Origin: an uncultured bacterium
GTDB lineage: Bacteria; Abyssobacteria; SURF-5
Direction of reading: 5' to 3'
NCBI GenBank assembly: GCA_964607485.1
Contig: CAZSKP010000008.1
Coordinates: forward strand, 32,001-96,000
Length of the DNA: 64,000 nt
The notes under the pieces: generated by a model
The model's database searches: none
What the model saw: the letters and a program-made list of their open reading frames with translations, nothing else
Told to the model about the DNA's origin: nothing
Shown here: piece by piece, positions 10,300 to 49,883 of the stretch
Position numbering within the stretch: the stretch's first letter is position 1
How the letters are laid out: every line of letters starts with the position of its first letter
Program-made: the position numbers and the translations under genes

Positions 10300-10728
10300 C
10301 TATGTGTTAGTGCTCTCACCGATAGTCCCACGTCCCTCATGGATTCTTCTATGACATTCTCTGCATAATACAATCACGTCGTTCGCTTCTTCCTGTCCTC
10401 GCCGCTCGTAGCTATTGTGATGGACTTCCAGACCATCGGCGTTACTGCACGCTTGACATCGACGTTTAGCACGTTCCAACGCGTCTTCGCGAATTTGCCA
10501 CCAATGATACGTTTTCAGGTAGTCGGCATATGGCAAGCTTTGCAGGCGGAGAATTTCACTTTCTTTAAAACCTCGCGATTGGCGTCTTGAATGGCGTTGT
10601 CTTAGCTGTTCGGCCATATTCGCATAAAGTGGTGCAATCAGAGCCACATATATGAGCGATCCAATCACTAGTACCAAACATATAAGTGCAATCCAGCCAG
10701 CAACTGTCAGACTTCCGAAAAGTTCCAT
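10300..10728 (-). CDS. HNH endonuclease domain protein with N-terminal TM helix
   Basis: YADYLKT..W, CQAC, LEVHH..Y, VLCRECH..IH; hydrophobic residues 9-32. Confidence 0.8.
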   Translation of the reverse strand: MELFGSLTVAGWIALICLVLVIGSLIYVALIAPLYANMAEQLRQRHSRRQSRGFKESEILRLQSLPYADYLKTYHWWQIREDALERAKRRCQACSNADGLEVHHNSYERRGQEEANDVIVLCRECHRRIHEGRGTIGESTNT

Positions 10729-10923: not shown

Positions 10924-11544
10924 TTATGGATTACTAATCAAATTGTCTCGATTCTCTTGGTCCATCCTTTTCGTCTCATCGTCACCTAGAGATGGTAATC
11001 TTACAGCTTCAACCAGCTTTTCTCCAGCCTCTCGGATCACCTTAACGCATTCCCGTCTTTCATTAGCGTCTGATATTATTCTAAGATTTCCCGCCTCCAT
11101 GAATGCGAGGCGAAACGCCTTTCTTGCCTCTGCGTCTAAGTAAAGGTTATTCTTAATCCACCATTCTTGACATTCATATGCTGTTTCCATTGCCTTCTTG
11201 TTATCGTCCGAGCTCCAAAGAAGCTTATTCCACAGAACGTAAGCTTCTTGATGCTTCCTCAGACGTTCATCCAAGGCAGCTAGCTTCAGTTGATTTGATA
11301 ATTGTAGGGAGGCCTTGTGGGTTTCAAGTTGAGTGTTGAGTTGTAATCGGACTCCCTCAACTTTTTTCGTAATCTCTGCAATATCCTCTTTGGTGGCAAG
11401 ATTTTCGGCTTTCTTCGTTAAATACGACCCCAGAAAAATGCCTATGGCAACTGCTATGAGCAGCGCTACATAAAACGACCAATCAAACGTATCTGCATTG
11501 TGTATTGCTTCTTCAACGAGAACTCTGATTGTCTCGGCATCCAT
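10924..11544 (-). CDS. hypothetical single-TM coiled-coil protein
   Basis: TM segment then SYLTKKAENLATKEDIAEITKKVE coiled coil; AT-rich. Confidence 0.7.
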   Translation of the reverse strand: MDAETIRVLVEEAIHNADTFDWSFYVALLIAVAIGIFLGSYLTKKAENLATKEDIAEITKKVEGVRLQLNTQLETHKASLQLSNQLKLAALDERLRKHQEAYVLWNKLLWSSDDNKKAMETAYECQEWWIKNNLYLDAEARKAFRLAFMEAGNLRIISDANERRECVKVIREAGEKLVEAVRLPSLGDDETKRMDQENRDNLISNP

Positions 11545-11611
11545 AACACAGATATTATAGAAAAGAGTTTGCGGTCATGTCAAAAGTGGTCACCTGAAAC
11601 AAGCGAGGAGA

Positions 11612-11735
11612 AAAAGGGGAAGGGGAAAACTGCGTTTATCTGTGTTCATCTGTGGTTTCATAAGTCTTTATCCCATTCCTTCGTGGCCCTTTGCGGATGA
11701 ATCTTTCCTTTGCGTTCTTTGCGTCTTTGCGGTGA
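11612..11735. repeat. repeat cluster at the right edge of the GxxExxY island
   Basis: AAAAGGGGAAGGGGAAA, TGCGTTTATCTGTGTTCATCTGTGGTT and CTTTGCGTTCTTTGCGTCTTTGCGGTGA. Confidence 0.7.
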
Positions 11736-11966
11736 TTATTCCTGCATTCCTTCCTGCGCCATGAAAATTAACAAAAACTTCCTTGCTGGAATTCGCGGTG
11801 GCGGATAACAATAGCCCCAGTCGACTGAAGAACAGCCTGGATGGCACGGAACGCGCGCGCTCCCCGAACCGCACAAAGGAGATCAAGAGTGAAGCGATCG
11901 TGGAAAAGGCGATCAACCGTATCCGCCCGCGAGTTTGAATCCCTCTGGCGGAATGCCGCGGTGTCT

Positions 11967-12210
11967 GAGCGCCTGGCACCGGTGAGGGCGTACCCATGGG
12001 AACCCCCGCTTCCTTCAGCGGCAGGCCCGCGGAGAAACCCCACGACAGACCGGGTCACCGGCCGCTTGCGCCGCCATGGAAGGCATCTCCGGCCCGCAGT
12101 TTGGGCCGGGGCGGACGAGAAGGGGTCGCCTGTCTCAAGGTTCACAGGTGTGCGTACCAGAAGGGACGCACCGGCCACGTAACAAATTCCGGCGCCGGAA
12201 CACCAGGCTC
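11967..12210 (+). ncRNA. candidate structured non-coding RNA, family not recognised
   Basis: Ends pair (GAGCGCCTGG..CCGG / CCGG..CCAGGCTC), with several internal hairpins; G-U wobbles favour the + strand; no credible ORF. Confidence 0.5.
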
Positions 12211-12225
12211 CATGCAGGGCCGCAT

Positions 12226-12255
12226 TTGACTTTCACCTGCTCGGCCAGCTATAAT
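12226..12255 (+). promoter_or_regulatory. sigma70-type promoter of the oxidoreductase operon
   Basis: TTGACT, 18 bp, TATAAT. Confidence 0.75.
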
Positions 12256-12323
12256 TAATTATTGGGTCATCACTTGTCCTCAACAAGCGCGGCGCGGAAA
12301 AATCCGCTGTAGGCATCAGAAAC

Positions 12324-12560
12324 ATGTCATCCGAATCCCCCGGAAAAAAGAAGAGGGAAGCCTACATCGTCATACTGGAAGAGCGATGTAAGAGCTGCCG
12401 TTTTTGCGTGGATACCTGTCCGCTCGACTGCATCGTCATCGGCACGGAAATCAATTCGCAGGGCTACAATCCCGCCAAATTTCAGGGCAACGGCCGCTGC
12501 ACCGGCTGCTGCCTGTGCGCCGAGGTGTGTCCCGACACGGCGATAGAGGTTTATAAGTAG
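12324..12560 (+). CDS. 2x[4Fe-4S] ferredoxin (oxidoreductase delta subunit)
   Basis: CKSCRFCVDTCP and CTGCCLCAEVCPD. Confidence 0.92.
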   Translation: MSSESPGKKKREAYIVILEERCKSCRFCVDTCPLDCIVIGTEINSQGYNPAKFQGNGRCTGCCLCAEVCPDTAIEVYK

Positions 12561-12580: not shown

Positions 12581-12649
12581 GGGGACAGTCCCTAGAGCAA
12601 TTATGTAGGGGCGGTTCGCGAACCACCCGAAAATATGGTGTCTGTCCCC
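12581..12649. repeat. nested REP-like palindromes
   Basis: GGGGACAG...CTGTCCCC enclosing GTAGGGGCGGTTCGCGAACCACCC (12605-12628). Confidence 0.7.
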
Positions 12650-31494: not shown

Positions 31495-32448
31495 ATGAAC
31501 AATTTTGAAAGGCAGATAGAGGCGGTCACCGGCGGAGGACTGCACAGCCTTGAAATCGAGACCCTGCAGGTCAACCTGGGCCTGCGCTGCAACCAACGGT
31601 GTGCGCATTGCCACCTTGAGGCCTCGCCGCAGCGAAGTGAGATGATGGAATGGCCCACCATGCAGGCCGTGCTGGAGGCGGCCAGGAGGGTCGGCTGTCG
31701 GCTTGTCGATTTGACCGGAGGAGCGCCGGAGCTTAATCCCCATTTCCGACTCTTCTTGGATGCCCTTTGCGAGACGGGCAATCGCGTGCAGGTGCGCACC
31801 AATCTCACCGTGCTCCTCGAACCGGGCATGGAGACGATACCCGAATGGTTTCAGGAACGCGAGGTCCAGATCGTGGCCTCCATGCCGTGTTATCTCGAAG
31901 AGAACGTTCGGGCCCAGCGCGGCGCGGGAGCGTATGAGAAAAGCATCGAGGCTATCAAGCGGTTGAACGCCGTCGGCTACGGCTCCGAGTCCCGGCTGCC
32001 GCTGAATCTTGTCTATAATCCCGGCGGTCCGTTCCTGCCGCCTGAGCAGTCGGCGCTCGAGGACGACTACCGGCGCGAGCTGGGCGGGCGCTTCGGCATC
32101 ACCTTCTCCCGACTGCTGACCATCACCAACATGCCCATAGGCCGGTTTCAGGCTGAGTTGCGTCGGGAGGACCGCGAGCACGAATATCTTCGGCTTCTGC
32201 AGGAATCGTTCAATCCGACCACCGTCGACGGCCTGATGTGCAGGCATCAGCTCAGCGTCGGCTGGAACGGAAAGTTGTACGATTGCGACTTCAACCTCTC
32301 TCTCGGTCATGCCGTGAATCATGGCGCGCCCGACCACATCCGATACTTCGACCCGTCGCTTCTGAGAGCGCGCCGGATAGTCACCGGAGAGCATTGCTTC
32401 GGCTGCACGGCCGGCTTCGGGTCGTCGTGCGGGGGCGCTCTCATATGA
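31495..32448 (+). CDS. arsS: arsenosugar biosynthesis-type radical SAM protein (rSAM/Cys-rich, DUF3641)
   Basis: LQVNLGLRCNQRCAHCH, DLTGGAPE, LNLVYNP, ITNMPI, LMCR, YDCDFN, HCFGCTAGFGSSCGGAL (Cys, not Sec). Confidence 0.9.
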   Translation: MNNFERQIEAVTGGGLHSLEIETLQVNLGLRCNQRCAHCHLEASPQRSEMMEWPTMQAVLEAARRVGCRLVDLTGGAPELNPHFRLFLDALCETGNRVQVRTNLTVLLEPGMETIPEWFQEREVQIVASMPCYLEENVRAQRGAGAYEKSIEAIKRLNAVGYGSESRLPLNLVYNPGGPFLPPEQSALEDDYRRELGGRFGITFSRLLTITNMPIGRFQAELRREDREHEYLRLLQESFNPTTVDGLMCRHQLSVGWNGKLYDCDFNLSLGHAVNHGAPDHIRYFDPSLLRARRIVTGEHCFGCTAGFGSSCGGALI

Positions 32449-49285: not shown

Positions 49286-49883
49286 TCAGACTTCCCACGG
49301 TTTCTTTGGTTCCACCTTTCCCGCAGATGGATTCTCGGGATCGCTTTCCCAACAAAGAGGATTGTCGATGATGTACCGGCGAATGCGATTGAATTCTTCA
49401 TCGTTGCGGACAATGTGTTCGTAGTAATTGCGCTGCCACAGCCTGTCTGGGAACGATTTCCAGCCGCATTCGGCAATTCCTCGACGATACCGTGCGGTAG
49501 TCAGTGATTTGAAACGATGAACAACAAGGGGCAAGGACATCTTTGTAGGGGCAGGCCCCAAATCATCCGCCGAATCTGTCGTAGGGGCCTGCCCCTACAA
49601 CGGATTCAGTCAGTGGTTTGATAAAGATGATGCCGTGAAGATGGTTAGACATGATTACAACCGCGTCGATATCAATGCCCGGATAGTATTGCGGCAAATC
49701 GTGCCACACAGAATGCACCATCGCTCCAATTTCATTCAATATCGTCTGGCCATCCACAATCTTCCCGAACAAGCATCGACGCTGCCGCGCACAAATCGTC
49801 ACGAAGTATGCTCCCGCCTGCGAATAATCGAAATCTTTCAGTCGGATGGACCGGCGACGATGCTTCGGCGGGTCAGGAATCAT
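49286..49883 (-). pseudogene. REP-associated tyrosine transposase (RAYT, Y1 HUH), split by a frameshift
   Basis: RRSIRLKDFDYSQAGAYFVTIC..IMSNHLHGII in one frame; FKSLT..LWQRNYYEHIVRN..IRRYIIDNP in another. The break falls in a 17-bp inverted repeat at 49543-49600. Confidence 0.88.

Follow-up and report, generated by a model that had tools for sequence, protein, structure and literature searches.

Large structured RNAs without an assigned function are rare in bacteria, and earlier examples have proved to be ribozymes, giant assemblies of RNA, or the guide RNAs that mobile nucleases use. OLE, GOLLD, ROOL, HEARO and raiA are large or orphan structured non-coding RNAs (ncRNAs) of bacteria, all represented in Rfam, with HEARO being found beside IscB. 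Dispersed RNA genes are also known in the form of sibling small RNAs (sRNAs) such as Qrr1-5, LhrC1-5, csRNA1-5 and RsmX, which measure 70-200 nt, and transcribed non-autonomous repeats include miniature inverted-repeat transposable elements (MITEs) such as Correia/NEMIS, ERIC and RUP, as well as the palindrome-associated transposable elements (PATEs) derived from IS200/IS605. Here we describe a non-coding unit with likenesses to each of these groups, found in a stretch of 64,000 nt (the window) from an uncultured bacterium of the Abyssobacteria lineage SURF-5 (GenBank assembly GCA_964607485.1, contig CAZSKP010000008.1, forward-strand positions 32,001 to 96,000). An intergenic block at 11967-12210 of the window had been flagged from its letters as an independent, highly structured RNA (the original prediction). 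Comparison of copies and homologues shows this block to be the 3' two-thirds of a larger unit at approximately 11768-12212 on the plus strand, in which a sigma-70-type promoter is followed by a 5' domain, then a variable centre, and finally a 3' domain rich in hairpins. The unit is real, conserved, non-coding, promoter-bearing, multi-copy and lineage-restricted. Its promoter spans 11768-11812, and the predicted RNA would run on the plus strand from about 11819 to about 12212. On balance, and with confidence only somewhat above even, we read it as a candidate family of trans-acting structured RNA genes that is dispersed, lineage-restricted and putatively expressed, and that is possibly self-propagating.

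Like OLE, GOLLD, ROOL, HEARO and raiA, the unit is several hundred nucleotides long, intergenic and lineage-restricted, has paired ends and conserved hairpins with some covariation, and shows no obvious function. Unlike them it matches no Rfam family, has a much narrower range (5 of the 11 genomes in a single phylum), occurs in several copies whose paralogues are near-identical, was not found with any associated protein gene, and displays covariation that is far thinner. With the sibling sRNAs it has in common dispersed paralogues, a common promoter module, a similar 3' end and conserved exposed loop motifs, including the C/U-rich AAUCCCUCUG, but it is longer (about 390 nt for the window copy, about 470 nt for paralogues and up to about 610 nt with inserts), carries insertions of the repetitive extragenic palindrome (REP) and MITE kinds, and occurs in truncated forms. 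MITEs and PATEs are similar to it in their dispersed, intergenic, assembly-breaking copies, hairpin-rich sequence, short inverted termini, variable copy number and the presence of a Y1-transposase-like gene in the genome; they differ in that the unit has a promoter conserved upstream of its inverted repeat, exceeds most MITEs in length, has G-U pairs that suit one strand, and has no long terminal inverted repeats shown.

The range of the family was defined with two covariance models, R1 for the 5' domain (92 positions) and R2 for the 3' domain (88 positions, 16 pairs). Both match the same 5 of 11 phylum genomes, in 4 of 9 genera, with scores of 60-104 bits. R2 copies number 6 in the window's own genome (G000), 11 in G003, most of which lie at contig ends, and 1 each in G006, G007 and G009, while BLAST and R1 add partial copies in G007 (C279, C165) and G009 (C127, C38). 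DNA searches of 41 relatives gave matches only within the window's own family. A scan of 185,579 species genomes for the 5'-block pattern returned three loci, namely two family members (one in the record Candidatus Abyssobacteria bacterium SURF_17) and, in a Pseudoduganella record, one chance match, which scores 11.8 bits with R1. For metagenome contigs one pattern, TCCGGCGCCGGARCRCCARGC, yielded 49 loci, none of them homologous, since BLAST aligned 42 of them only in the 20-38 nt surrounding the pattern and gave nothing for the remaining 7. Among viral contigs 7 pattern loci were found, 5 of which R1 matches at no more than 9.2 bits, so that all were taken for chance, and BLAST against plasmids and phages gave no homologue. 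Within the range searched the family thus appears confined to one small candidate lineage. These homologues already refute the notion that the block is chance GC-rich intergenic sequence without function: its folding energy equals that of shuffled sequence, as such a notion would have it, but the model matches in five genomes, the conserved promoter and two covarying hairpins leave it next to no probability.

Within G000 (4.70 Mb, 93 contigs), a BLAST search of the window against the genome's own contigs showed that positions 12103-12209 match the very ends of C35 and C37 (both 82%) and of C18 and C81 (both 78%), and a fifth tail end, on C2, was found with the C37 tail as query. Positions 11758-11785 match C4 and C30, whose heads in turn match C78, C62 and C17. 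The genome therefore presents five heads and five tails, with the interior absent from the assembly. In public contigs (run X1) paralogue pieces have depths of 33.6 and 36.9, versus 11.9 and 8.6 for window-specific pieces (about 3-4 times). In the deeper pieces a paralogue head continues into a 5' domain that resembles window 11832-11964, differing by 8 substitutions and by a 15-nt insert behind 11934, and a paralogue tail is preceded by a centre that resembles 11935-12136, with 3 substitutions and 4 gap letters. Because these contigs join head, interior and tail, all within about 470 nt, we regard the other copies as full-length paralogues and the window copy as a divergent sixth; G000 holds at least six copies, and the five others broke the assembly. 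Among the sequencing runs listed as carrying the sequence, 14 are of DNA and none is of RNA. A leader or trailer of an rRNA operon was considered and rejected: on C81, what comes after the 23S-5S end is a separate hairpin and T-run terminator and not the unit tail.

Conservation begins with the A-rich block TTAACAAAAA (11768-11777, plus strand), which lies just 5' of the -35 element, may be UP-element-like, and is invariant at 9 of 10 positions across nine promoter regions from five genomes (the sixth position varies in G007a). The sigma-70-type promoter that follows (11783-11812, plus strand) comprises the -35 hexamer TTGCTG (11783-88), an 18-nt spacer and the -10 hexamer AACAAT (11807-12). 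Over the same nine regions the -35 element reads TTG(A/C)(C/T)(C/G), with TTG kept, the spacer is 17-18 nt long and free in sequence, and the -10 element is TnnAAT-like (AACAAT, TTCAAT, TATAAA or TTTAAT), with a conserved CAGTCAACTGAAAG downstream of it. The hexamers are TTGACC/TTCAAT in the paralogues and TTGACC/TATAAA in G003, and the module of A-rich block and promoter also heads the five other copies in G000. Such upstream conservation bears the signature of a selected sigma-70 promoter. Transcription would start near 11819, where the leader palindrome CAGTCGACTG (11818-11827, plus strand) occupies the predicted 5' end; CAGTCAACTG or CAGCCAATTG stands at the equivalent place in G006, G003 and G009, and REP-like hairpins are inserted directly after the palindrome in paralogues and in G007. 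A sigma-54 promoter was also entertained, with TGGCAC at 11842-47 being kept in 4 of 5 genomes, but its -12 GC is out of register in G006 and G007. The promoter module AAAAATTAACAAAAAGTTCCTTGCTC also occurs alone, twice 776 nt apart in a tandem duplication on the minus strand of G009:C81:14282-15097 (L017), upstream of unrelated sequence with a ribosome-binding site and ATG, and about 8 further lone modules were seen in G003. Since the module also precedes unrelated sequence, lone promoter hits were excluded from the copy counts; it may be a strong promoter typical of the lineage.

Downstream of the promoter the two ends of the predicted RNA are complementary. P1 pairs AGCCTGG (11834-11840) with CCAGGCT (12203-12209), the end of the conserved unit; it is paired in 93% of cells over 4 homologues, and its outer pair is A-U, G-U or G-C. 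P2 pairs TGGC (11842-11845) with GCCA (12174-12177), is invariant and is paired in 3 of 3 alignable homologues. Both helices occur in the minimum free energy (MFE) fold of the full unit, and taken together (11834-40/12203-09 plus 11842-45/12174-77) they are paired in 95% of cells. The original prediction had closed its block with a different helix, GAGCGCCTGG at 11967-76 against CCAGGCTC at 12203-10, which can form in the window but is not conserved, being paired in only 69% of cells over 4 full-length homologues. With P1 and P2 better kept than this helix, and with an invariant GAAC at 11866-69, the conserved unit starts some 150-200 nt 5' of the flagged start at 11967, and the block boundaries first proposed do not hold.

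Between the two 5' strands and the centre lie further conserved elements, all on the plus strand. The P3 hairpin GGAAC..CGCG..GCTCC (11848-11863) varies in length with its pairing kept (GGAA-CGCG-TTCC in G006, GGAAT-CGCG-ATTCC in G007; 87.5% of cells paired). It is followed by a conserved, single-strand-looking block at 11866-11900, which is of high identity in all five genomes, forms the core of model R1, and contains the GAAC that is invariant in the 4-sequence alignments spanning the site, a Shine-Dalgarno-like AAAGGAG (11875-81), GTG (11889-91) and GCGATCG (11894-900). The P5 hairpin CCGCC/GGCGG (11923-11951, arms 11923-27/11947-51) carries the conserved loop motif AATCCCTCTG at 11938-47, which is duplicated in paralogues through a 15-nt insert, and CCAT/ATGG in G006 versus CCGC/GCGG in G003 represents two pairs changed on both sides. 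A likeness of GTTTGAATCC (11934-43) to a tRNA T-loop, noted by eye only, was set aside because its flanking stem is poor. The P6 hairpin (11956-11984; 11956-65/11975-84) has the core GGTGTC (11960-65) / GGCACC (11975-80), is paired in 86% of cells, and contains what the original prediction took for the 5' closing arm; one of its pairs is found as G-C, G-U and A-U and another as C-G and U-A, with several G-U pairs that suit the plus strand only.

The variable centre (11985-12126, plus strand) contains in the window a hairpin CCGCT-TCCTTC-AGCGG (12006-21), CCGG-GTCA-CCGG (12050-61) and CTCCGGCCC/GGGCCGGGG (12087-12111; 12087-95 and 12103-11). Sequence blocks of the centre are common to G006, G003 and G009, while its local helices differ between clades. 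Hairpin insertions of REP/MITE type are found here, and in some genomes also in the leader, in G003, G009, G007 and the G000 paralogues (centre inserts in G003 and G009), and there is an internally deleted copy (G009:C100) as well as a tail-only copy (G003:C190). One MITE-like repeat with GTCATTGCGA(A/G)CGGAGCGAAGCAATCTC was observed at a single hot spot between centre and 3' domain, inserted sometimes twice in tandem, in G003:C102, G003:C190 and G009:C100 (L108, L120, L110).

The firmest structural evidence comes from the 3' domain, for which 21 sequences (15 distinct) were aligned to R2. The Hb hairpin GTGCGT/ACGCAC (12150-12171; 12150-55/12166-71), with the loop ACCAGAAGGG and a conserved GAAGG, is paired in 100% of cells over the 15 distinct sequences, and two of its pairs change on both sides (U-A/C-G twice), with further G-U and U-G variants. 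Hd, TTCCGG-CG-CCGGAA (12187-12200; 12187-92/12195-12200), is likewise paired in 100% of cells; its outer pairs change on both sides (C-G, U-A, G-C), paired inserts make the hairpin longer in G006 and G003, and G007:C165 has a recoded version. For the domain as a whole 86.7% of cells are paired versus 80.1 +/- 0.8 in shuffles, and six two-sided pair changes compare with 3.0 +/- 0.8, a figure equalled by 0 of 500 shuffles, with slid controls giving at most 2. The third hairpin, Ha (CCTGT/ACAGG, 12129-12148; 12129-33/12144-48; loop CTCAAGGTTC, with GGTTC at 12139-43), is kept in the five paralogue tails. All of these elements read on the plus strand, which is favoured because the conserved promoter lies on it and because the G-U pairs of the helices become A-C mismatches on the other strand; such pairs are frequent in P6, Hb and Hd, as the original prediction had argued from its wobbles.

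A T-run follows CCAGGC in the paralogues (CCAGGCTTTT) and in most homologues. As a separate observation, GAGCCCCAGGCT(T/C)C, the final 14 nt of the unit, recurs about 24 nt past the 3' end in G003:C186 and G003:C231 (L119, L113), and the way in which copies end or recombine could have left this footprint.

For the 5' domain and centre the statistics rest on 4-6 sequences, in which 87.4% of cells are paired and 3 pairs, in P5 and P6, are changed on both sides. A possible long-range contact between GAACY (11866-70) and RGUUC (12139-43) covaries, being C-G in the window versus U-A in G006 and G003. The pseudoknot first proposed for the same GGTTC loop, with GAACC at 12000-04, found no such backing, as that GAACC is not conserved. 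Taken together, fold support is solid for the two hairpins Hb and Hd and suggestive for a closed multi-helix fold; for the remaining helices, among them the end-to-end stem that begins at 11834, the evidence is mainly that their complementarity is conserved.

Several results weigh against a structured RNA gene. Folding energy does not set the sequence apart: the flagged block has an MFE of -105.2 kcal/mol versus -104.35 +/- 5.3 in dinucleotide shuffles, of which 83 in 200 do as well (z -0.16; z -1.04 for the minus strand), so that the claim of a highly structured block beyond chance fell, and the whole unit 11819-12212 gives z +0.40, though its MFE fold contains P1 and P2. The 3'-domain alignment was fitted to the model structure, a bias in the structure's favour. 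Covariation in the 5' domain and centre is weak, with the 3 two-sided changes comparing with 1.0 +/- 0.8 and being equalled by 22 of 500 shuffles, and the covariation score by 85 of 500. P1 and P2 are without any two-sided change, the fifth pair of the GAACY/RGUUC contact is broken in paralogues (GAACA versus AGUUC), and the fixed alignment has Ha paired in just 57% of cells, the hairpin being formed in a different register in G006 and G003 (CTGT-CTTC-ACAG). The window promoter is the weakest of the set (8 of 12 matches, missed by a strict scan), and the window copy ends without a T-run (CCAGGCTCCATG); given this weak promoter and missing T-run it could be a decaying copy. The hairpins could also serve as signals at the DNA level. 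Finally, the near-identical copies, the patchy range and the internally deleted and tail-only copies suit a selfish repeat equally well.

As regards the observations from which the work began, the sequence letters and the intergenic position stood, including CGCCTGT/ACAGGTG at 12127-33 and 12144-50, TGCGTACC..GGGACGCA at 12151-70, and GCGTACC at both 11988 and 12152. The description of the block as free of open reading frames (ORFs) did not, since ORFs of 113, 136, 77 and 60 aa cross it, although they carry no coding signal. Of the proposal that it is an independent ncRNA or ribozyme-like element, the non-coding and neighbour-independent part is borne out, and the ribozyme part is unsupported, with nothing for or against it. 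What the original prediction overlooked is that the block is part of a family of dispersed copies that have a promoter of their own, and this raises the question of a mobile element.

As a trans-acting RNA gene, the unit might work as follows. The A-rich upstream block and the sigma-70-type promoter would fire the RNA, whose 5' domain (P1 AGCCUGG, P2 UGGC, the P3 hairpin and the GAAC / AAAGGAG / CGAUCG block) would pair with the 3' end (GCCA, CCAGGCU) and close a multi-helix body. The body hairpins P5 and P6, then Ha, Hb and Hd, would present fixed loop motifs (AAUCCCUCUG, GAAGG), and the centre would be dispensable enough to accept insertions of hairpin-forming repeats. The RNA would act in trans on a putative partner, most likely as a protein-binding or scaffold RNA, and the neighbouring vor (2-oxoacid:ferredoxin oxidoreductase) operon would not be its target. 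Whole units, internal insertions included, would have been copied into new intergenic sites. A more ambitious version, which we hold to be improbable though worth stating, is that the unit represents a new class of large structured RNA in which the RNA itself is the propagating unit, either as an RNA-only retro-mobile element that uses a host reverse transcriptase, or as an abundant ribonucleoprotein scaffold with its dosage raised through gene amplification. The gene would then be one of about 400 nt with its own promoter and a terminator-like end, present in 1 to 11 or more copies per genome within a candidate phylum and tolerant of central hairpin insertions.

The same copies also admit a rival reading. 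As a non-autonomous mobile element or selfish repeat (MITE-, PATE- or short interspersed element (SINE)-like), the unit would use its terminal complementarity AGCCTGG...CCAGGCT and its hairpins as signals for a transposase or reverse transcriptase encoded elsewhere, and the transcript would be incidental or an intermediate. Related genomes carry between 1 and 11 copies, the copies of one genome are near-identical and break short-read assemblies, only 5 of 11 phylum genomes have them, truncated, internally deleted and tail-only forms exist, the flanking genes are unrelated, and five Y1-transposase-like frames are present in the genome. Copy lineages moreover carry identical internal inserts, from which it follows that whole units were duplicated. 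Yet no transposase, reverse transcriptase or nuclease lies beside 17 copy loci (75 ORFs), no TnpB-type frame occurs in the genome, and searches of plasmids, phages and viral contigs gave no homologue. The inverted repeat is only 7 nt long and lies inside the homologous unit; because homology between copies starts at the promoter, about 65 nt upstream, this repeat is not the end of an element. Neither a target-site duplication nor an empty site is shown, as nothing in the DNA of G009, a genome of the same genus, matches the flanks of G003:C76, upstream synteny is broken at the relatives' vor loci, and most copies are cut by contig ends. The conserved promoter hexamers and the one-strand G-U pairs point to selection on the RNA. 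We consider a selfish repeat possible but rather unlikely as a full account; it is compatible with RNA function, and the ncRNA-gene and selfish-repeat readings overlap each other.

Two observations on repeats and transposase-like genes may be added. REP-like palindromes GTAGGGGCG...CGCCCCTAC are scattered in G000 (window 12604-12630, the C4 and C62 ends, about 20 contigs in all) and are inserted in paralogue leaders. The window itself contains, on the minus strand at about 49367-49552, one of the five Y1-transposase-like frames, which are possibly of the RAYT kind.

Guide RNAs of mobile nucleases were considered separately. An IscB/TnpB omega-RNA (HEARO-like) or an IS110 bridge RNA was rejected, there being no such nuclease or recombinase gene beside the 17 copy loci scanned, beside the window copy, or beside the G006 or G007 copies, and no Cas12f1-like_TNB (TnpB-type) frame was found in G000.

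We also asked whether the unit might be translated. The conserved block could belong to a folded mRNA for a small protein or leader peptide starting from GTG/TTG at 11889 behind AAAGGAG, with the 5'-3' fold-back controlling translation as in hok. Hok-type type I toxin mRNAs resemble the unit in being about 400 nt long, multi-copy and heavily folded, with 5'-3' end pairing, a Shine-Dalgarno sequence and start codon inside the fold, and some copies disrupted by insertions. AAAGGAG (TAAGGAG in the G006-type clade) precedes an aligned GTG/TTG, which stands 7-9 nt away in the window copy, its paralogues and G007. GTG directly abuts GGA in G006, G003 and G009; in G006 and G003 a TTG 11 nt further along is the next in-frame start, where G009 reads TTA. 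Each homologue keeps the frame open over 97 to more than 230 codons, and by our frame reading 2 of 3 substitutions between window and paralogues over 11889-12094 are third-position and the 15-nt insert is in frame. However, conserved nucleotides fall in different frames in G006 versus G003, where substitutions number 9/14/8 by codon position and the gap runs of 1, 16, 1, 1 and 3 include four (1, 16, 1, 1) that shift the frame; peptides of different clades have only about 5 residues in common, so the GTG frame is not conserved as protein. Similarity by tblastx extends over several frames and both strands with internal stops. Since stops are scarce in all six frames of every copy, the openness of the frame is compositional, and long open frames are found in most of the six. 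Pfam gave no match in three ORFs of the unit, no hydrophobic toxin-like peptide was seen, and the conserved 3' domain lies outside the window ORF (stop at 12180-82). The unit further departs from hok-type mRNAs in having no conserved small hydrophobic ORF or conserved frame, and no antisense RNA gene was identified. We accordingly read it as non-coding, with room left for a short leader peptide, and judge a folded mRNA to be very unlikely.

The surroundings of the window copy bear on a further explanation, in which the unit would be a cis-acting leader or regulatory element of the vor operon, or of whichever gene lies downstream. The block sits between a divergent gene for a 206-aa protein (10924-11544, minus strand; perfect TTGACA-18-TATAAT promoter at 11583-11554) and vor. 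The unit ends about 15 nt before the vor -35 element and the window copy has no T-run, which makes read-through possible, and of 14 copies whose neighbour has Pfam support 11 share, as a raw count, the orientation of the gene downstream. Vor nonetheless has its own promoter after the block (TTGACT-18-TATAAT, 12226-12255), as the original prediction had maintained in denying that the block is the operon's leader. The vor genes are 79-83% identical across seven relatives, and at the vor loci of G007, G009, G008 and G003 homology starts only at 12220-25, just past the unit, so that vor promoter and leader are conserved in four relatives none of which has the unit there. A T-run ends most copies, and the genes adjoining the copies are unrelated (INDEPENDENCE from neighbours) with no constant family downstream: vor, TetR (twice), enoyl-CoA hydratase, histidine kinase, HemD, GHMP kinase, RDD, peptidase M16, nitroreductase, a cupin-HTH protein and an aminotransferase. 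The cis-leader explanation is thereby largely refuted for vor, and we give it very little credence in general.

Beyond the unit, conservation across genera covers the vor promoter (ATTTGACTTT...TATAATTA) and a ATCACTTGTC motif downstream of it, and all sequence upstream differs (window 12222-12300; G007, G009, G008, G003), and this conserved vor leader may hold a regulatory site. On the other side, an ORF of 142 aa (10300-10728, minus strand) has a weak HNH endonuclease match (E 3.1e-4; 21.3 bits, where the cut-off is 21.4); this ORF is on the other strand, 1.1 kb upstream of the unit, and is absent at the other copies.

Known RNA classes were examined with the 4227 models of Rfam 15 at the curated gathering threshold. 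The unit has no match at that threshold in a search of the whole window, nor at E<=10 on 11550-12350, where only a 14.7-bit chance match appeared, and it is in this respect novel to Rfam. Homologue loci L004, L014, L026, L027, L082 and L083 likewise gave no match, and control locus L007 gave only 5S and 23S rRNA. Genuine copies of the classes that the original prediction had set aside, and of 6S RNA, are located elsewhere in G000, all above their cut-offs: RNase P at C7:30102-30509 (290 bits), tmRNA at C1:174985-175337 (171 bits), 6S RNA at C21:45306-45488 (96 bits) and signal recognition particle (SRP) RNA at C6:10688-10787 (70 bits). Sponges of CsrA of the CsrB/RsmZ type have about 18-22 GGA in about 370 nt, mostly in hairpin loops. 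A CsrA gene is present in the genome, but the window unit contains 11 GGA versus 9.6 expected (98 of 300 shuffles equal), with 11 versus 7.7 in G006 and 8 versus 6.5 in G007, and this class was rejected. The sole Rfam match in the window is a Moco/tungsten-cofactor riboswitch aptamer (RF01055) at 1112-1230 on the plus strand (67.8 bits, E 3.5e-14).

The source lineage is uncultivated and comes from subsurface and sediment; among the literature matches listed for Abyssubacteria no title concerns RNA genes, and those matches showed none there beyond the universal ones. Models R1 and R2 now allow the unit to be found and masked, and its repetition accounts for at least 10 contig breaks in G000 and a similar number in one relative. 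The question it raises is whether we are dealing with an RNA gene amplified for dosage or with an RNA-bearing mobile element; were it merely a selfish repeat, the result would be an ordinary one, yet useful for assembly and annotation.

Intergenic DNA of G000 was also seen to contain short-period, low-complexity repeats, of the CTTTGCG type at window 11606-11760 and of the GATTTCGGATTTGGG, CACGAAGG and ACGGTTTACGG types beside the copies on C35, C37, C18, C2, C4, C30, C78, C62 and C17. Window positions 11697-11735 alone match about 15 other loci.

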